Positions 5,914-35,517 are shown, counted from the first letter of the stretch. The stretch: 35,623 nt of DNA from Candidatus Woesearchaeota archaeon (GCA_964361505.1 CAYIAV010000002.1:1-35623), one strand, 5' to 3'. Program-made: numbers and translations. Notes: generated by a model not told the origin, from the sequence alone.

Positions 5914-6575
5914 AAGAAATTCTCACAAAAGACAACAGCATAACTTTTTTCAACAAAGAATTTAAAGAAAACCTACATCCGGAATCGGGTGCAATAGCAA
6001 GCGTTTACAATAGATACATTAACCATTTAAAATTAAAAAATAACATAAAAGTTCTAGATATTGGTTTTGGTATAGGCTACATTTCTTTAATAATTTTAAG
6101 CAAAGTAAATGCAGATATTACAGCACTAGAAAAAAACAAAGAATACACAGAAGTGATGAAAAACTTAAATTTGCCAGATACTCTAAACGAATATCACAAA
6201 AAATTAAAAAGAATAAATATTATCATAGGAGATGCAAATAAAACTATAAAAAAAGTAAATAAGAATTTTGATTTAATAATATTAGATGGTTTTTCTCCAA
6301 TAAAAAATAAAGAATTATACTCAATTAATTTCTTAAAAGAATTAAAAAAGAGAATGAATAAAGATTCAACATTAATAACATATTCCAGCAATCCCTTAGT
6401 AAGGCATAATTTAATGGAAGCAGGATTTAAATTGAAAAAATACAGAATCAGCAAATATGAAGAAGGCACAATAGCCTCTTTTACTGAAGGAAACCTAACA
6501 GAAAAAGATAAAAAATTAATAAGAGCCTTCAACTTACCTATACAAAATTCCGGTAAAGAAGTTAATCTGGTCTAG
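5910..6575 (+). CDS. MnmC-like SAM-dependent methyltransferase (DUF752 type)
   Basis: VLDIGFGIGY is the SAM loop. ILDGFSPIKNKELYSINFLKELKKRMNKDSTLITYSS matches the MnmC methyltransferase-domain signature (DGFxPxKNPxLW...TY). Confidence 0.6.
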   Translation: MKEILTKDNSITFFNKEFKENLHPESGAIASVYNRYINHLKLKNNIKVLDIGFGIGYISLIILSKVNADITALEKNKEYTEVMKNLNLPDTLNEYHKKLKRINIIIGDANKTIKKVNKNFDLIILDGFSPIKNKELYSINFLKELKKRMNKDSTLITYSSNPLVRHNLMEAGFKLKKYRISKYEEGTIASFTEGNLTEKDKKLIRAFNLPIQNSGKEVNLV

Positions 6576-6794
6576 TCTATAAAAGATAAACACAATTAGT
6601 AACACCAAAGCCAATAACATCACTGCTAATATCATGCTGGCATAAAAGTTCATTACAGCCCATCTCTTATGCTCTCTAGTGGCTTTCAAATTTTTCAATT
6701 GTAATTCTTCACTAAAGGAAATTCTATATTTCTCTCCATCAGAATCAGTTTTATATAGCTTGCCACCCTCTTCAAAATACTTAATGTCGGCCAT
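6534..6794 (-). CDS. hypothetical single-pass membrane protein
   Basis: 86-aa ORF with one strong TM helix (MILAVMLLALVLLIVFIFY). Its 3' end overlaps convergently with 5910-6575. Confidence 0.4.
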   Translation of the reverse strand: MADIKYFEEGGKLYKTDSDGEKYRISFSEELQLKNLKATREHKRWAVMNFYASMILAVMLLALVLLIVFIFYRLDQINFFTGILYR

Positions 6795-6902
6795 ATCAGG
6801 CTTAAATTTAGATTGTTTATAAATATTATTATTATAAAGTGGTTATTATAGAGAATAATAATCATTAATAAGGCTTATTAAGACTTTTAATCAAATCGAT
6901 GT

Positions 6903-7406
6903 ATGGTACTAGAGTTTTTAATAGCGTTCCTTGGATTTATAGCAGGTTTTTTTCTAAATAGGGTTGTAAAAGAAGAATTAGGACCTGGAAAAAAGTATTT
7001 TGCATTTCTCTCAATAATACTTCTCATTTCCATAATAATATTAAATATAGTGCCAATATTTGATATAGTAATAGGCATAATAATAGGTGTAATATTAAGC
7101 TGTCTAATAAGTAATATATATTTTTATCTTGGAATCTCTGCATCAGTCTCTGTATTATCAAATAATAACATAGCATTATTATCAGCATTAATTTTTATTT
7201 TTGGATTATCTTATTCAGCTTTAAACTATAAAATAATAAATAAAAAATTTTTGTTAAAAAGTTTAATATTTTTCTTTATCCCTTTTCTTTTATTATTGAT
7301 AAACATATTTCCGGGATTTTACACAAATTTTTCAGGAATAAGCATAGGTGGTTTAATAGTTGCTATAACAAAAATCCAAAAAACTACATCTTTTCTAAAA
7401 TTCTGA
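6903..7406 (+). CDS. hypothetical polytopic membrane protein
   Basis: 167 aa with about five hydrophobic helices. No motif recognised. Confidence 0.5.
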   Translation: MVLEFLIAFLGFIAGFFLNRVVKEELGPGKKYFAFLSIILLISIIILNIVPIFDIVIGIIIGVILSCLISNIYFYLGISASVSVLSNNNIALLSALIFIFGLSYSALNYKIINKKFLLKSLIFFFIPFLLLLINIFPGFYTNFSGISIGGLIVAITKIQKTTSFLKF

Positions 7407-8277
7407 TTCTTTCATTAATGTCCGGATGTGTGCTAAACAAGCCATTAACTTTGCCTTTAAAGTTTCTTAATGGATTTTCAATGAACAAATGTGCAGTTGC
7501 TTTATTTGCAGCTTCTACTAATGGTTCTTTGTCATCTCTTATTGCTTTCAAAGCATTTGCTAAACTCTTAGGATTTCTATAAAGTAATGCGCCATCTGCA
7601 TCAGCTAAAAATTCACGCTTTCTGCTTATTGACAGTTTAATTAGTTGCGCTATCAATGGAGTAAGTATAGCCAAAACTATGCCAATAAGTACAACCACAA
7701 TTACAATAGTACCTCCTTTGATATCATCTTTTCTCTTTCCATAAATAAAACTTCTTAAGAATAAATCACTGAGTAAAGCAACAACTCCAACTAAAACAAC
7801 AACAAGCATCATCATTCTTATGTCATAATTCCTTATGTGCGCCATCTCATGAGCTATAACTGCTTCAAGCTCATCCCTTTTTAATCTTTGAATAGCTCCA
7901 GTTGTTACAGTCACAGCAGCATGTTCAGGATCTCTTCCGGTCGCAAATGCATTTATTGCACTATCATCTATGACATAAATTTTAGGTGTAGGGATTCCAG
8001 CGGCAATAGCAAGTCCTTCAACAGAATTGACTAAATGAGGATATTTCTTCTTATCTGCAATAATAGCATGGCTCATGCTTAATATCATTTTATCGCCAGA
8101 ATAGAAGCTTACTAAAGTCATTATAACAGAGAGTATTATTGCAAATGACAATCCAATAAAAACATTCCCAATATAAGCCCCTAAAGCATATCCCAAAATT
8201 CCAATAATGACAAAAAATAAAACAATTAAAAGAATTGATTTTCTTTTGTTTGAAGAGATATGATCATATAGCATCAT
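7384..8277 (-). CDS. htpX: HtpX-family M48 zinc metalloprotease
   Basis: HEMAHIRNYD (HExxH) and N-terminal TM helices. It is paired with lemA, as is common. Confidence 0.85.
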   Translation of the reverse strand: MMLYDHISSNKRKSILLIVLFFVIIGILGYALGAYIGNVFIGLSFAIILSVIMTLVSFYSGDKMILSMSHAIIADKKKYPHLVNSVEGLAIAAGIPTPKIYVIDDSAINAFATGRDPEHAAVTVTTGAIQRLKRDELEAVIAHEMAHIRNYDIRMMMLVVVLVGVVALLSDLFLRSFIYGKRKDDIKGGTIVIVVVLIGIVLAILTPLIAQLIKLSISRKREFLADADGALLYRNPKSLANALKAIRDDKEPLVEAANKATAHLFIENPLRNFKGKVNGLFSTHPDINERIRILEKM

Positions 8278-20039: not shown

Positions 20040-20171
20040 GGGGCTTACTTCCATTGCCGGTATGGGACTTCAAAAAGAAGCATAAAGCTATAGGCTAATG
20101 GTTAGGCTCACAGGTTTGGGTCTAAAAGAGCAAAAAACCTGTTGATCCAGGTTCGAATCCTGGTAGCCCCA
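20040..20171 (+). tRNA. tRNA-Pro(UGG) gene with a canonical intron and an acceptor-stem interruption
   Basis: The 3' acceptor TAGCCCC + A73 pairs with GGGGCT (20040-20045) + A20090, which are separated by 44 nt. D-arm GGCT-AATGGTTA-GGCT. After removing 20121-20136 (16 nt, 37/38), the anticodon arm is ACAGG-TTTGGGA-CCTGT, with a perfect central helix TTTG/CAAA and 3-nt bulges. T-arm CCAGG-TTCGAAT-CCTGG. Mature length is 72 nt. Confidence 0.7.
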
Positions 20172-20213
20172 CTCCAAAAGATTTAAAAAACAAAGGGATT
20201 AGGTTCTATAAAA

Positions 20214-25409: not shown

Positions 25410-25682
25410 GTGCAGACTAGATTGGCGGGCTAGCCCCTCGTTGTAACTGCAAACGGGCTTCATGGTAGGATCGAATCTTGGAGAGAGGTATATGCATTCA
25501 TGTAAACCTCAGCCGTACTGATGATCCTCTGTCCTGTTCGGTCGGCATAGTAAGGAACTGAGTCAGGGTAGGAATACAGCAGCTCTAACTTGTTATATCG
25601 GCGCTTACAGGGAAGCAGAGAGTAGGAAAAGCTGGGATCATTTGCATGAACTGTATATATCCATCTCCAGGAGTGTCTGCAA
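25410..25682 (+). ncRNA. ffs: signal recognition particle RNA (7S/SRP RNA); ends approximate
   Basis: GC-rich structured island. The terminal helix pairs TGCAGAC (25411-25417) with GTCTGCA (25675-25681). A helix-8-like motif GTCAGGGTAGGAATACAGCAGC (25562-25583) has a GGAA tetraloop. An Alu-like GGCGGGCTAGCCCC lies near the 5' end. Confidence 0.75.
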
Positions 25683-27270: not shown

Positions 27271-27762
27271 TTAGTCATATTTGACAGCTTTTAAGTATCT
27301 TTTAACCTCATCAAAGATAGAATAAGTTTCAGCTCTTAAATCCTTATGGATTTTATCAAAATGCTGCTTAACAATAAACTTATCAAACACTTCTCTAATA
27401 AACTTAGAAACAGGATTTTTTTCCCAGTTATCCTCATAATCCTTATATACATAACTCTCAAAAAGGATTGAGACATTACCTTTCAAAAGATTTCTATTTC
27501 CAACCTTAACCTCTTCAAGTTTATTTCCTCTAAAAGTAACATCAATAATCATCTTTGTGTAGTCATCTACTTTTTTCTCAGAACTCCATTTGATAAAGAT
27601 ATTTTTTCCTTCTTCAAGCTCTTTGTCATTATACTCATTTTCGATAAAGTCGTATCTTCTCTGAAAAAACCACTCTTTCATAAGCTTATAAGTTTCTCTT
27701 AAATCAATAACTCCAGATTTCTTAATCATAATCCCACTTATTACATAATCCGTTTCAGCCAT
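27271..27762 (-). CDS. uncharacterised protein, paralog 3 of a tandem trio
   Basis: 163 aa. Shares the blocks Y-x-x-[LM]-K-x-W-[FL]-x-x-R, I-[KQ]-W-x3-KK-[VI]-[DS]-[DS]-[YF] and D-x-W-[EDQ] with the two upstream ORFs. Confidence 0.7.
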   Translation of the reverse strand: MAETDYVISGIMIKKSGVIDLRETYKLMKEWFFQRRYDFIENEYNDKELEEGKNIFIKWSSEKKVDDYTKMIIDVTFRGNKLEEVKVGNRNLLKGNVSILFESYVYKDYEDNWEKNPVSKFIREVFDKFIVKQHFDKIHKDLRAETYSIFDEVKRYLKAVKYD

Positions 27763-27792
27763 GATTTCATCAATCCTTTTCTATTATTAAAC

Positions 27793-28302
27793 CTATCTTG
27801 TTAGTCCTAAATTTTCTTTTGTATAATCAACAAACTGGTATAATAATGTGTAGTAAACAACTTTATGCTCTTCTAATCTTCTCCTGCCTATAAAATTAAA
27901 ATAAACTTTATCAATAAAACTAGCTTTATCCCAGTCATCTTCTCCTACCTTGACATATCCAATCACCCTTATCTCAAAATCTCCCCTATCCACCTTTCTT
28001 TTTATATCACCTATCTGCACTTCTGCATCACTCATCCCTAATATCAAAAAAGTTACTTCCATATTATAAGAGAAATAGCTACTAACTTTCTTAGAGCATT
28101 GCCATTGTATTTCTAAATTTTTAACTCCACCCGCAAATCTTCTCTCAGTAAACTTCTTCTCTAAAGTCTTTTCATCAGCAAATCCCCTATCCTCAAGCCA
28201 TAGCTTCATAAATTTATATACCTCAGAAAAACTGGTATTCCCTTGCCACCTAATCTTCAATCCAGCTTTTGGTGTTAAATATACATCATCTCCCATTTTC
28301 AA
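27793..28302 (-). CDS. uncharacterised protein, paralog 2 of a tandem trio
   Basis: 169 aa with the same block structure. Its start overlaps the stop of paralog 1 by 4 nt. Confidence 0.7.
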   Translation of the reverse strand: MKMGDDVYLTPKAGLKIRWQGNTSFSEVYKFMKLWLEDRGFADEKTLEKKFTERRFAGGVKNLEIQWQCSKKVSSYFSYNMEVTFLILGMSDAEVQIGDIKRKVDRGDFEIRVIGYVKVGEDDWDKASFIDKVYFNFIGRRRLEEHKVVYYTLLYQFVDYTKENLGLTR

Positions 28303-28787
28303 TCATAAAGCCCCATAATCTCTTTCATTTCCCCTATACATTCCATCATCTCTAAATACAAATTTGTTTCATAATAATGCTTTATTTTAGCTTTTATTAA
28401 AAAATTAGTATAAAGATGGAATAAAAGTCTTTTGAAAGGCGTGTCCTGCCACTGGTTCCTGTAGTCTAATTCAAGATAAGCCACAACATTTATCTTGACA
28501 TCACCAACATGCTTATTGCCTCTCTTTTTATATTCTCTAACCAAAGCAAAAGTCTCTATATGAAATTCAACAAAATCATCTATTTTTTTATCTCCATCAA
28601 GCTTTATGTTCAATTCATTCCCATGAGCCCTGTATTTTTCAGTATTTTCCCTCTCAGTAAAAGTATACATTCTTTTATCAAACCAACTTTTTAAAGTAGA
28701 ATAATACAGCTTAGCATCAAACTCCCCCTTTTTGAAAATTAATATCCCATTGCCCGGAGTAATCTCATCCTTTTTAGGAATAGCCAT
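28299..28787 (-). CDS. uncharacterised protein, paralog 1 of a tandem trio
   Basis: 162 aa with the same block structure (LYYSTLKSWFDKRMY, NIKLDGDKKIDDFVEF, DYRNQWQDTPF). Confidence 0.7.
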   Translation of the reverse strand: MAIPKKDEITPGNGILIFKKGEFDAKLYYSTLKSWFDKRMYTFTERENTEKYRAHGNELNIKLDGDKKIDDFVEFHIETFALVREYKKRGNKHVGDVKINVVAYLELDYRNQWQDTPFKRLLFHLYTNFLIKAKIKHYYETNLYLEMMECIGEMKEIMGLYD

Positions 28788-29840: not shown

Positions 29841-30062
29841 CTACTTTCTACTCAAAGTTATCTCAATAGTGCTTACTCTGATATTTTTACCTTCATTATT
29901 CTGAAATTCTTCGCTATCTATCTTGATATGTTTAATTTCTACAGTATTCTCCAAGAATCTTTTGCAGGCAACTTCTGAGATGTCTACACACCTAGAGATA
30001 AACTTGCCTCTTCCTTTTATAACTACCTCCTTAGCTCCTTGCGTAGTAAACTGCATAACCAC
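29841..30062 (-). CDS. albA: Alba (Sac10b) DNA/RNA-binding protein, C-terminal portion only (beta2 to beta4)
   Basis: GAKEVVIKGRGKFISRCVDISEVACKRFL...NIRVSTIEITLSRK aligns with the Alba core. The conserved N-terminal VxVGxKPxMNYV segment is missing from this ORF. By my reading, the codon at the track start (30062-30060) is TGG and the first ATG is at 30056. Confidence 0.8.
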   Translation of the reverse strand: MVMQFTTQGAKEVVIKGRGKFISRCVDISEVACKRFLENTVEIKHIKIDSEEFQNNEGKNIRVSTIEITLSRK

Positions 30063-30074
30063 ACCTGTTACGTA

Positions 30075-30106
30075 ACTCTTGCTGAGAAAGCCTTAACTTA
30101 ACTCAG
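30075..30106 (-). other. candidate BHB intron inside the Alba coding region (31-32 nt)
   Basis: On the minus strand the stem pairs CTGAG (30105-30101) with CTCAG (30085-30081). It is flanked by 3-nt bulges AAA (30108-30106) and AGT (30076-30074). The central helix pairs CATG (30112-30109) with CAAG (30080-30077), with 3 of 4 positions paired. Geometry and bulge sequences match the tRNA-Ala intron. Confidence 0.5.
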
Positions 30107-30108
30107 TT

Positions 30109-30147
30109 TCATGAAGGGTTTTGCTCCCACGAACACGGTATAGTCAT
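30109..30147 (-). CDS. albA: Alba N-terminal segment (DDYTVFVGAKPFM) in a different frame from the C-terminal ORF
   Basis: The translation matches the Alba beta1/alpha1 start (VVxIGKKPVM). The frame ends at TAA three codons later unless the intervening element is removed. Confidence 0.55.
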   Translation of the reverse strand: MTIPCSWEQNPS

Positions 30148-30296
30148 CTGCAGATTTTCTTGTTCCTTCCTGTGTACCATAGTCTTCCTGATTCATTTTA
30201 ATCCGCCTCCAACATTTTTTGATGAATGTCAAGTCTAGTCTACTCTGTTGCCATAAATCGTAAAGTCAAGAAAGCTTTTAAATGTTTTCTTCAGAA

Positions 30297-30491
30297 TTAG
30301 CAATTCTTACTTTGCTTAGTTAGCCTAGTAACATAACCAGTTATCACATTTCTTAGCTTCTTGGAAGGAAAATCAACAAATTGCTCTGTAAGTTTTTTAT
30401 TAGCATCAAAATTATCAGTAAAACAATCTTTATGATCCCTAAAAGTTTTCAAAGCTACTCTCTTAACCAATGCGGTCTTAATTCTTCCCAT
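30297..30491 (-). CDS. rps17e: ribosomal protein S17e
   Basis: MGRIKTALVKRVALK...ITGYVTRL matches S17e. ATG 30491 is preferred over TTG 30497. Confidence 0.85.
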   Translation of the reverse strand: MGRIKTALVKRVALKTFRDHKDCFTDNFDANKKLTEQFVDFPSKKLRNVITGYVTRLTKQSKNC

Positions 30492-30512
30492 AACCAAAAC
30501 CTAAAAAATAAT

Positions 30513-32404: not shown

Positions 32405-33328
32405 TTAAAGTTTTTCAAATATCAGAAAATGTTTAGAAGCGTATTCTATCCCCTTTTTATTAAGCTCTCCAGAAAATAAAAAAAGCAAAGGTAATTTCCT
32501 CAATTGAGAATCATTATGGGCTAAAACCAGATCAGCATCACTAATAATCTTCTTATTCCTGTATTTCACAAAAAACTTTACTTTCCCAACACTGCTAGGT
32601 ACTTCTGCAATATACTCTAGTTCAGAGCTTTTCCTAAGAATTTTTTCTTCAACAATAACAGCCTTCTTCTGAGAAAGATAATTTCTAACTGTAATTGAAG
32701 CATCGCTTTGCTCTCGAATTTTTTTAGGCTTAGGTTCTTGAATCTCTTTTTTCTCTTGAATAATTGGAATGTTATTAGGTAAATCTTCTATATCTTCTTT
32801 CAAGGCGACTTTCTCTTCTATAGCCCCTTGTTCTAAAGGGGGTATAGCCTCTGGCATTTCTAAAGGAATATCTTGAATTTTTTGTTCAGGATAATACATT
32901 TCTTTAATCAGTTGTATGGCGTCATGATCACTGATTAAATACCATCTCCAAAAGATTCCATCTTCATTCTGAATAGAATAAGCAAAGTCTCTAATTTCTC
33001 TCAAGGCAACTCTCTGCCAAGCTTCTAAGTCTTTGTCTTTCAAAATTTTATTATCTTTTAATAAATCATAAACTTTCTTGTGAACATCTTTCAAATGGTC
33101 ATAAAGAACATGTAATTTATATTCTTGCCCGTCAACATAATAAACAGGGCTTCCACCAACCTTAGCACTACTGATCCTTATTTTCTGCCTTCCAACCAGT
33201 TCACTTAATATGGCCCCTGCAAAAAATAAATTCCCGCCAAATTGCTTAGAAATCTGAATAGGCAATACAGGACCATTAACTCTAATAAAAGAAATAACCT
33301 TATCTCTAAAAGCAGGATCTTGGACCAT
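32405..33328 (-). CDS. hypothetical protein with winged-helix-like N-terminal repeats and a possible nuclease-fold C-terminus
   Basis: 307 aa. The N-terminal 60 aa look like a wHTH (VISFIRVNGPVLPIQISKQFG...). The C-terminal ELEYIAEV...VKFFVKYR is reminiscent of PD-(D/E)xK. Both readings are tentative. Confidence 0.45.
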   Translation of the reverse strand: MVQDPAFRDKVISFIRVNGPVLPIQISKQFGGNLFFAGAILSELVGRQKIRISSAKVGGSPVYYVDGQEYKLHVLYDHLKDVHKKVYDLLKDNKILKDKDLEAWQRVALREIRDFAYSIQNEDGIFWRWYLISDHDAIQLIKEMYYPEQKIQDIPLEMPEAIPPLEQGAIEEKVALKEDIEDLPNNIPIIQEKKEIQEPKPKKIREQSDASITVRNYLSQKKAVIVEEKILRKSSELEYIAEVPSSVGKVKFFVKYRNKKIISDADLVLAHNDSQLRKLPLLFLFSGELNKKGIEYASKHFLIFEKL

Positions 33329-34956: not shown

Positions 34957-35517
34957 TTACGGTCTAGTCCACTTAATTTCGTAGTAAGTACAATCTTCCT
35001 CTGCATCAACTATCCCCAATAGCAATCTCTTCCTTGTGCTATGAGCAACCCTGTTCTTAGCGCTAAACTCATGCCAGGTTAATGTGCTTCCCTCATGAAC
35101 TGGAAATAAAACCCATTTAGCATGATCTTCTCCAGGTTTAATTCCCCTATCATAAACCCTAAAATCGGCCCCAAATTTTAAAGCAGTTTTAACAATATAT
35201 CCTCTGCTCCTCATATCTCTATAAACAAGATACTTCAACCAAATATTGGGCTCAGTTTTCTTAGAACTTTTCAATAAAGCATCAAATTTCAAAGTTTTCT
35301 TGCCATCTTTGACATTCATCTTTCCCTTTTCCACTAAGTACAAAGCCTCAACTAAAGAATAAACTATCTTGCCGTCCTTAGGCTCACCATATCTGCTGGA
35401 ATCATACAATTCTCTAGCACTGCCTTTATCTTGAGCACTAACTTTCTCCATCAAAAACTCAGCTGCAAATTTCCTGACTTTTATCTTTTCTTCTTTAATA
35501 TTATCCTTATCACTCAT
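34957..35517 (-). CDS. endA: tRNA-splicing endonuclease, single-unit (alpha-type) subunit
   Basis: YRDMRSRGYIVKTALKFGADFRVYDRG, HAKWVLFPV and VAHSTRKRLLLGIV correspond to the catalytic Tyr/His/Lys region of archaeal EndA. Length is 186 aa. Confidence 0.85.
   Translation of the reverse strand: MSDKDNIKEEKIKVRKFAAEFLMEKVSAQDKGSARELYDSSRYGEPKDGKIVYSLVEALYLVEKGKMNVKDGKKTLKFDALLKSSKKTEPNIWLKYLVYRDMRSRGYIVKTALKFGADFRVYDRGIKPGEDHAKWVLFPVHEGSTLTWHEFSAKNRVAHSTRKRLLLGIVDAEEDCTYYEIKWTRP

Follow-up and report, generated by a model that had tools for sequence, protein, structure and literature searches.

A predicted 32-nt bulge-helix-bulge intron within an asparagine codon of the Alba gene of a Woesearchaeota-type archaeon

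The pre-mRNA of cbf5 in Crenarchaeota (Aeropyrum, Sulfolobus) reportedly contains an intron (Watanabe 2002, Yoshinari 2006). Two archaeal genes, cbf5 and HVO_1309, have been listed as having mRNA splicing dependent on the tRNA-splicing endonuclease EndA, with further examples expected (2023 review, PMC10485636). According to the same review, the HVO_1309 mRNA of Haloferax volcanii is cut by EndA (Schwarz 2020, PMC7714728, cited through PMC10485636). In the case of cbf5 (Yokobori 2009, PMC2738675), a short intron of the bulge-helix-bulge (BHB) type lies in a conserved protein gene and is removed by the tRNA-splicing endonuclease, followed by ligation; it is patchily distributed, related lineages having gained or lost it, and the genes are annotated as frameshifted or truncated. 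The Alba gene described here resembles cbf5 in all these respects, with removal and ligation being predicted. The two cases differ in the host gene and lineage (the pseudouridine synthase Cbf5 in Crenarchaeota, Alba in DPANN/Woesearchaeota) and in the motif, which in cbf5 is relaxed and tied to a heterotetrameric (alpha-beta)2 EndA (PMC2738675, PMC10485636), whereas the Alba element has both 3-nt bulges, a 4-bp helix and flanking helices, and the sole EndA seen is alpha4-like. Splicing of cbf5 has been demonstrated experimentally, whereas that of Alba is predicted. With HVO_1309, as far as it is presented in the review, the Alba gene would share an archaeal mRNA that serves as substrate of the splicing endonuclease through a BHB, in a different gene and lineage.

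Archaeal pre-tRNA introns of the hBHBh' type have the same geometry and cut rule, and the Alba inserts (21-34 nt) fall within the length range of tRNA introns; Alba loci with two adjacent introns likewise resemble multi-intron tRNAs. In contrast to pre-tRNA introns, the host is an mRNA, and invariant amino acids have to be encoded by those bases of the exons that take part in the helices. No report of an intron in an Alba gene was found in the literature searched, a coverage that leaves out most subscription journals. To our knowledge, Alba is the third host gene for protein-coding BHB introns and the first in DPANN archaea; neither tandem introns with micro-exons of 4-5 nt nor a structure kept through synonymous sites has been described for protein genes.

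The window, that is, the whole stretch of DNA analysed, comprises 35 623 nt (CAYIAV010000002.1:1-35623). It comes from a groundwater archaeon (Hainich), and the interruption recurs in dozens of related uncultured archaea. The split Alba gene is made up of the following features.

30206-30210, minus strand: Shine-Dalgarno-like GGAGG that precedes the start codon of Alba by 9 nt, read directly and conserved in the related locus L049
30108-30196, minus strand: Alba exon 1, with start codon ATG at 30196-30194, 29 codons (MNQEDYGTQEGTRKSADDYTVFVGAKPFM) and the bases AA of Asn30 (ORF table)
30076-30107, minus strand: predicted 32-nt BHB intron, ACUGAGUUAAGUUAAGGCUUUCUCAGCAAGAG, the removal of which gives an in-frame Alba of 107 aa
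29841-30075, minus strand: Alba exon 2, made up of the last base of the Asn30 codon, 77 codons (YVTGVVMQFTTQ...ITLSRK) and, at 29843-29841, the stop codon

The open reading frame at 29841-30062 (minus strand) encodes Alba from profile position 21 onward only (ORF table, Pfam). The missing N-terminal piece, DDYTVFVGAKPFM, comes from a different frame of that strand, further upstream (ORF 30098-30232), and is followed by a stop after KLS; residues 1-29 of exon 1 gave 100 % in tblastn. In the same frame as DDYTVFVGAKPFM, the ORF starting at ATG 30196 reads MNQEDYGTQEGTRKSADDYTVFVGAKPFM-KLS-stop, the stop lying three codons into the insert. Excision of exactly 32 nt (30107-30076, ACTGAGTTAAGTTAAGGCTTTCTCAGCAAGAG) is in frame, and direct translation yields a protein of 107 aa (MNYVTGVVMQFTTQ...) that reads ...KPFM-N-YVTGVVMQFTTQGAKE... 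across the joint. By this junction KPFM-N-YVTGVVMQFTTQ is restored, a stretch that does not vary among 17 intact homologues; in the alignment with these homologues, all residues from K26 to Q42 across the junction, the Asn of the split codon included, are invariant except for the nearly invariant V36. The codon of Asn30 is split by the insert as AA/U (a slash marks the cut here and below), and shifting the 32-nt deletion by one base in either direction replaces Asn by Ser or Lys. In the predicted spliced RNA, ...UUCAUGAA would be joined to UUACGUAAC without 30107-30076, and the junction peptide of the predicted protein would be PFMNYVTGVVMQFTTQGAK.

The joined protein matched the Pfam Alba profile (PF01918, the Alba/Sso10b family) over positions 2-66 of 66 with 54 bits (cut-off 25), whereas exon 2 alone matched positions 21-66 only, with 36.6 bits; the spliced product would thus be a full-length Alba domain, as in other members of this family. 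In a search of 5.8 billion proteins, it was 70-85 % identical to thousands of contiguous Alba proteins, labelled mostly Woesearchaeota or Nanoarchaeota; none of the 120 homologues retrieved was identical to a spliced product. Ten exact spliced products were absent from a collection of 15 billion proteins, with neither an assembled transcript nor an intronless twin being found. A tblastn search of the window and of 184 related loci revealed no second copy of Alba. Production of Alba would depend on splicing, because the unspliced mRNA can give only a 32-aa peptide that ends within the intron.

In its geometry, the insert with its flanks corresponds to the hBHBh' type of archaeal tRNA introns, a 4-bp helix lying between two bulges of 3 nt each on opposite strands. 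EndA cleaves each bulge behind its second base. The elements were assigned as follows.

30115-30117, minus strand: outer helix h, 5' strand CCU (exon 1), pairing with 30073-30071, the middle pair being a C.C mismatch in the window
30110-30113, minus strand: central helix H, 5' strand CAUG (exon 1), pairing with CAAG at 30081-30078 in 3 of 4 positions
30107-30109, minus strand: 5' splice-site bulge AA/A, cut between 30108 and 30107, the sole register that restores Asn
30102-30106, minus strand: inner helix h', 5' arm CUGAG (minimum free energy (MFE) and centroid fold, pair probability 0.95)
30088-30099, minus strand: apical hairpin AAGU-UAAG-GCUU within the intron (fold), part of the UAAGUUAAnnCUU motif
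30082-30086, minus strand: inner helix h', 3' arm CUCAG (MFE and centroid fold, pair probability 0.95)
30078-30081, minus strand: central helix H, 3' strand CAAG (intron), assigned from pairing in the family
30075-30077, minus strand: 3' splice-site bulge AG/U, cut between 30076 and 30075, U30075 completing the Asn codon AAU
30071-30073, minus strand: outer helix h, 3' strand ACG of U-UAC-GUA (exon 2), assigned from covariation in the family

Cuts placed by the BHB rule, 30108/30107 and 30076/30075, are in silico the only register that restores both Asn and the reading frame. The central helix of the window carries an A.A mismatch, and the outer helix consists of 3 bp following a conserved U.U mismatch. 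As a control, the identical scoring was applied to the tRNA-Pro(UGG) gene at 20087-20167, where it picked one register, an intron at 20121-20136 in the canonical 37/38 position with 4/4 pairs in H and 5/5 in the outer helix.

Much of this anatomy had been recognised in a preliminary description of the window, made from the sequence alone. Its reading of ORF 29841-30062 as a C-terminal Alba fragment was borne out by the Pfam match from profile position 21 onward, and the ORF table agrees with its placement of the missing N-terminal piece upstream, on the same strand and in another frame that stops after KLS. The parts of the BHB (CUGAG with CUCAG, CAUG with CAAG in 3 of 4 positions, bulges AAA and AGU) were named correctly, but with coordinates shifted by one: the N-terminal piece (DDY..M) lies at 30148-30110 instead of 30147-30109, the stem arms CUGAG and CUCAG at 30106-30102 and 30086-30082 instead of 30105-30101 and 30085-30081, and the 32-nt insert, the excision of which does restore KPFM-NYV, at 30107-30076 instead of 30106-30075. 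The statement that this excision leaves the frame one nucleotide off, to be mended by an extra G at 30059-30061, was a miscount, the excision being exactly in frame; a 31-nt excision, said to be in frame, leads on direct translation to a frameshift and early stops. Nor does the ATG behind the Shine-Dalgarno-like sequence lie in a third frame from which 34 nt would have to be removed: ATG 30196 shares the frame of DDYTVFVGAKPFM, and no second removal is needed.

The restoration of the Alba consensus by the bulge cuts had also been judged unlikely to arise by chance. From the structure alone, the insert is not beyond chance. The local fold of the insert is not unusually stable (z = +1.3), and the MFE structure shows h' only. 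The full BHB conformation lies 1.9 kcal/mol above the MFE, and free-RNA folding gave family mean pair probabilities of 0.18 for H and 0.28 for h. A structure-only scan of both strands of the window, with thresholds that the Alba insert just meets (H at least 3 of 4 pairs, h' at least 4 bp, 14-110 nt), returned 1417 BHB-shaped inserts the removal of which fuses ORFs. Such a scan is non-specific in the AT-rich DNA of the window and useless for finding further interrupted genes. Since the fold is unremarkable and the candidates are so many, the BHB shape by itself proves nothing, and homology and comparison have to carry the case; with homology, the exact junction and covariation across genomes taken into account, the insert is far beyond chance. 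An intron in the T-loop of a tRNA-Ala gene, to which the bulges had been likened, could not be located, only two tRNA loci being found in the window by ARAGORN, Rfam and a deletion scan. No Rfam match was obtained at the Alba locus even at E <= 10. A self-splicing intron of group I or group II was considered and excluded by this absence of matches and by size, the insert having 32 nt (21-34 nt in the family) and a ribozyme core hundreds of nucleotides.

Comparison of Alba loci in related genomes, which had been suggested in the preliminary description together with the search for a second intact copy, revealed a wider family. A metagenome collection was scanned with a pattern that fixes only the coding sequence of the exons and allows any gap of 12-42 nt after ATGAA, which returned 101 loci. 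Across the metagenome and genome collections, 67 loci were found to carry 54 different inserts of 21-34 nt exactly at the AA/Y site of the Asn codon. Removal of the insert gives a normal Alba in all 67; the stop codon is reached in 61, and the other 6 are cut by contig ends. The insert lengths fall into all three classes modulo 3 (23/22/9), so translation by read-through is impossible. Nine further loci have an intron 4-5 nt upstream of the AA/Y site. Three of these (L004, L070, L075) have a single intron at TTTA/TG; in four (L095, L113, L114, L140), an intron at TTTA/TG is combined with one at AA/Y, leaving the 4-nt micro-exon TGAA between them, and in two (L143, L144), an intron at TTT/ATG is combined with one at AA/Y, leaving the 5-nt micro-exon ATGAA. 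All nine yield a full-length KPFMNYV Alba, with a separate H and h' for every intron. In total, 76 interrupted genes from different lineages were identified, all of which give a normal Alba after removal of the inserts. Within the genome collection, at least 5 of 80 loci are interrupted; these counts are lower bounds, as the DNA pattern is blind to upstream-site introns that occur alone. The UAAGUUAAnnCUU motif is common to many Alba introns and, together with its flanking stem, occurs only there in about 1 Mb of related loci. An origin of the introns by transposition from tRNA genes was considered and rejected, the shared hairpin motif being found in Alba introns only in about 1 Mb of related DNA.

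In the unspliced precursor of most tandem genes, intron 2 has a better-paired central helix, which draws on the final bases of intron 1; in L095 this helix is formed by ACUG and CAGU with 4 of 4 pairs, of which only 2 of 4 are left once intron 1 has been removed. This better pairing with intron 1 still present suggests that intron 2 may be removed before intron 1.

Pairing was scored at positions anchored on the splice sites, a procedure that involves no alignment choices. Taken singly, pairs 1-5 of the inner helix h' are formed in 84-93 % of cases and draw on four to six types of pair each, compared with 29-54 % for a slid partner. Over 53 sequences, h' as a whole is 89 % paired, and each of its five pairs shows compensatory changes. 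The central helix is 75 % paired family-wide (20-53 % in slid controls); its first pair shows a compensatory change between CG and UA that involves the synonymous Phe codons TTC and TTT, and its second pair is unpaired in 29 of the 53 sequences. The outer helix (helix 1) is 94 % paired, with changes between GC and AU and a compensatory change at one pair. In the formal count, for which loop-trimmed sequences of 41 columns were used, 85.5 % of the cells are paired, a value reached by 0 of 500 shuffles, versus 65.4 % in shuffles and 25-48 % with slid partners. The covariation score is 0.537 versus 0.157.

The covarying pair of the outer helix consists of the synonymous wobble positions of CCN (Pro) and TAY (Tyr). 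These wobble bases pair in 46 of 55 intron-bearing genes (G-C in 31, A-U in 15), CCG going with TAC in 31/31 cases and CCA with TAT in 15/16. Among intronless genes, they pair in 34 of 76 and as G-C only once (Fisher p = 5e-6 against intron-bearing genes, a value inflated by phylogenetic non-independence, with the qualitative switch still clear). The Phe codon TTC, which provides a C-G pair in H, is favoured in the presence of the intron (38 of 55 versus 20 of 76 intronless genes). From these codon patterns, the BHB structure appears to be maintained through synonymous exon positions, which covary only in intron-bearing genes.

The identical insert is present in three independent assemblies, namely those of the Hainich groundwater H51 replicates R1 and R2 and the Logan assembly of ERR3858114. 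Assemblies ERZ1292623 and ERZ1292627 and run ERR3858114 belong to this well, H51. Gene callers run on these assemblies reported a truncated 71-aa "Alba" and, in one of them, the 32-aa ORF as well. The 32-nt insert recurs at the identical site in another species-level genome (L049, JACOZR010000036); the intron there differs from that of the window in 2 of 32 positions, both in the loop, while the Alba genes have diverged to a dS of about 1.0 (35 of 63.7 synonymous sites differ). Between the two, dN/dS is 0.028 for the whole gene and 0.030 for exon 1. The low dN/dS, calculated for the whole gene and for exon 1, and the near-identity of the introns at a dS of about 1 argue strongly that both exons are translated in their own frames under strong purifying selection and that the insert itself is constrained.

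The reading best in accord with these data is that the Alba gene of this Woesearchaeota-type (DPANN) archaeon very probably carries a 32-nt BHB intron inside the codon of Asn30, which is spliced out of the mRNA. Of the three outcomes left side by side in the preliminary description, a spliced or recoded Alba mRNA is strongly supported, in the form of splicing, while a decaying pseudogene and local assembly indels are rejected on the strength of selection and of the independent assemblies. A gene that is truly contiguous and only appears interrupted through an assembly or sequencing artefact might be thought of for a metagenome assembly of low coverage (cov 4-6 in the contig names); with the identical insert in three independent assemblies and homologous inserts at the same site on more than 70 contigs from many projects, it is practically out of the question. 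Inactivation of Alba by the 32-nt insertion, with the protein no longer being made, would agree with the gene calls, which give just the truncated 71-aa product and the 32-aa ORF, and with the end of the unspliced frame three codons into the insert. A decaying gene would be under relaxed selection, which is at odds with the dN/dS of 0.028 overall and 0.030 in exon 1 at a dS of about 1 against L049; furthermore, the 76 interrupted genes from several lineages are all normal Alba genes without their inserts, the only incomplete ORFs being the six cut by contig ends, the insert is conserved and its helices covary, and there is no second Alba copy in the window or any related locus. Such a pseudogene is hardly credible.

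Two explanations would preserve Alba without splicing. Ribosomal bypass or frameshifting over the 32 nt, similar to the hop in T4 gene 60, is suggested by the shortness of the gap, by an in-frame stop soon after its beginning and by a stable hairpin within it, features also of bypass elements. In the window, however, take-off and landing codons that match and would give the invariant Asn are lacking; the AAU codon of this Asn is itself split by the insert. The covarying BHB extends into the exon bases on either side and has the exact geometry of an EndA substrate; genes with two inserts and micro-exons of 4-5 nt are beyond a single hop, and the insert lengths fall in all three classes modulo 3. 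We therefore regard recoding as very unlikely. Split genes are known in DPANN archaea, and pieces of 29-32 aa and 71-73 aa might be translated separately and then assemble, as in Nanoarchaeum, for which GTG 30062 and ATG 30056 are possible internal starts. The codons for N-Y-V-T-G that precede the first of these have no start codon, yet N-Y-V-T-G is kept in the window, in L049 and in the loci from the protein search and is invariant in intact homologues. An insert of 21-34 nt is, moreover, too small for a promoter or ribosome-binding site, and the covariation of the BHB would be left unexplained, so that a two-piece Alba is very improbable.

For the removal of the intron, a presumed enzyme is encoded 5 kb from Alba.

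34957-35517 (coding 34960-35517), minus strand: tRNA-splicing endonuclease EndA, 186 aa and stop codon, the presumed intron-cutting enzyme

Both Pfam domains were found in this protein (tRNA_int_endo_N, E = 1e-14; tRNA_int_endo, E = 7e-29). Its best solved relative is the alpha4 homotetramer of M. jannaschii (1A79, E = 1e-34), with which it is colinear without a large insertion. Enzymes of the alpha4 type with an extra loop have been described from DPANN lineages rich in disrupted tRNA genes (Kaneta et al. 2018, PMC5829648). A near-canonical BHB kept by selection on exon wobble positions would fit an enzyme of fairly strict requirements. There is some tension between the resemblance of this EndA to the alpha4 type of strict specificity and the slightly imperfect BHB of Alba. 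In that part of the window which was annotated, no gene for an RNA ligase was found.

We infer the following course of events. Alba would be transcribed as a single pre-mRNA, in which the outer helix, a 3-nt bulge, the 4-bp central helix, the second 3-nt bulge and the inner hairpin of CUGAG and CUCAG would form. EndA, encoded 5 kb away, would cut after the second base of each bulge, and an RtcB-type ligase would join the exons; the 107-aa Alba would then be translated from ATG 30196 of the spliced mRNA.

The carriage of introns is partly clustered by protein similarity, 38 of 52 nearest neighbours being in the same state against a background of 39 %. Because carriage differs between genes that are 89 % identical in nucleotides, repeated loss or gain of Alba introns is indicated by the comparison; among the loci compared, contiguous genes reached at most 89 % nucleotide identity with an intron-bearing gene. 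Three insertion sites lie within 6 nt in the Alba family. It is conceivable, though doubtful at present, that the KPFMNYV-coding stretch is a hot spot of active gain, sliding and loss of BHB introns in Woesearchaeota, that such introns are mobile into protein genes, that the pairing of the central helix with the end of intron 1 in tandem genes implies an obligatory order of removal, and that splicing-gated synthesis of Alba acts as a post-transcriptional checkpoint. If this were true, the tRNA-splicing machinery would gate the synthesis of a major chromatin- and RNA-binding protein.

For an uncultured lineage, the comparative support is unusually strong, comprising more than 70 loci, three covarying helices and synonymous exon sites. 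Alba genes of this kind are annotated as truncated or missing in public metagenome-assembled genomes, by which marker-gene and completeness statistics are affected; this argues for BHB-aware gene calling in DPANN genomes. The loci also provide a substrate set of natural variation for the specificity of DPANN splicing endonucleases. For the biology of these archaea, the finding would mean that the best-conserved coding region of an abundant nucleic-acid-binding protein can accommodate a strict tRNA-type BHB, and that tandem BHB introns with micro-exons of only 4-5 nt between them can occur in protein genes.

Additional introns with a predicted bulge-helix-bulge (BHB) structure were identified in the KPFM-coding stretch of nine related Alba loci (L095, L113, L114, L140, L143, L144, L004, L070 and L075), at TTTA|TG or TTT|ATG, 4-5 nt upstream of the intron site in the window's Alba gene. 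In six of the nine (L095, L113, L114, L140, L143 and L144) two introns occur together and enclose micro-exons of 4-5 nt, TGAA or ATGAA. According to the predicted pairing, the last bases of the upstream intron form part of the central helix of the downstream intron in most of these tandem loci.

LAGLIDADG homing-endonuclease-like ORFs or a putative remnant were located beside three Alba genes, all of which (3/3) carry the intron (locus coordinates):

L121, ca. 5955-7100, Alba strand: LAGLIDADG homing-endonuclease-like ORF, ca. 300 aa (Pfam PF14528, E = 3e-16)
L154, ca. 7192-8261, Alba strand: LAGLIDADG homing-endonuclease-like ORF, ca. 300 aa (Pfam PF14528, E = 6e-14)
L090, ca. 1120-1409, Alba strand: putative 85-codon remnant, with last residues resembling the C-terminal tail of the L121 and L154 ORFs

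In L121 and L154 the ORF lacks a stop codon and runs in frame into the start of the intron-bearing Alba gene; its 3′ end contains the Shine-Dalgarno-like GGAGG of Alba. Such an ORF or putative remnant was found at 3 of the 67 intron-bearing loci and at none of the 92 intronless loci, a difference that is not statistically significant.

The archaeal origin of the window was confirmed by a match to the archaeal SRP RNA, and Alba is directly preceded by the S17e gene:

25410-25682, + strand: archaeal SRP RNA (Rfam RF01857, 126.7 bits)
30300-30497, − strand: ribosomal protein S17e gene, same strand as Alba

The gene order methyltransferase-S17e-Alba is the same in three independent assemblies. Ca. 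80 nt 5′ of the Alba start codon (ATG) lies a TTTAAAA box, rich in A/T, that is also conserved in L049, from another species-level genome with the same intron; this box may be the Alba promoter. Four consecutive or nearby ORFs (162-307 aa; 27274-28787 and 32408-33328, − strand) gave no Pfam match at E ≤ 0.001.

Archaeal Alba genes were also observed in MAGs labelled Patescibacteria (L046, JAHIVA010000097, with a 33-nt intron) and "bacterium" (L007); both are probably mis-binned DPANN contigs.

Two inserts were recognised in the tRNA-Pro(UGG) gene (20040-20172, + strand):

20121-20136, + strand: 16-nt intron at the canonical position 37/38; central helix UUUG/CAAA, with GG|U and AA|A as the two bulges
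Acceptor stem, + strand: second insert, ca. 44 nt, between the stem partners GGGGCU (20040-20045) and UAGCCCC (20163-20169)

The acceptor-stem insert has the same GCU at each of its two boundaries, and no register fits a strict BHB. Deletion of both inserts yielded a clean tRNA-Pro (ARAGORN); this tRNA gene appears to contain two introns.
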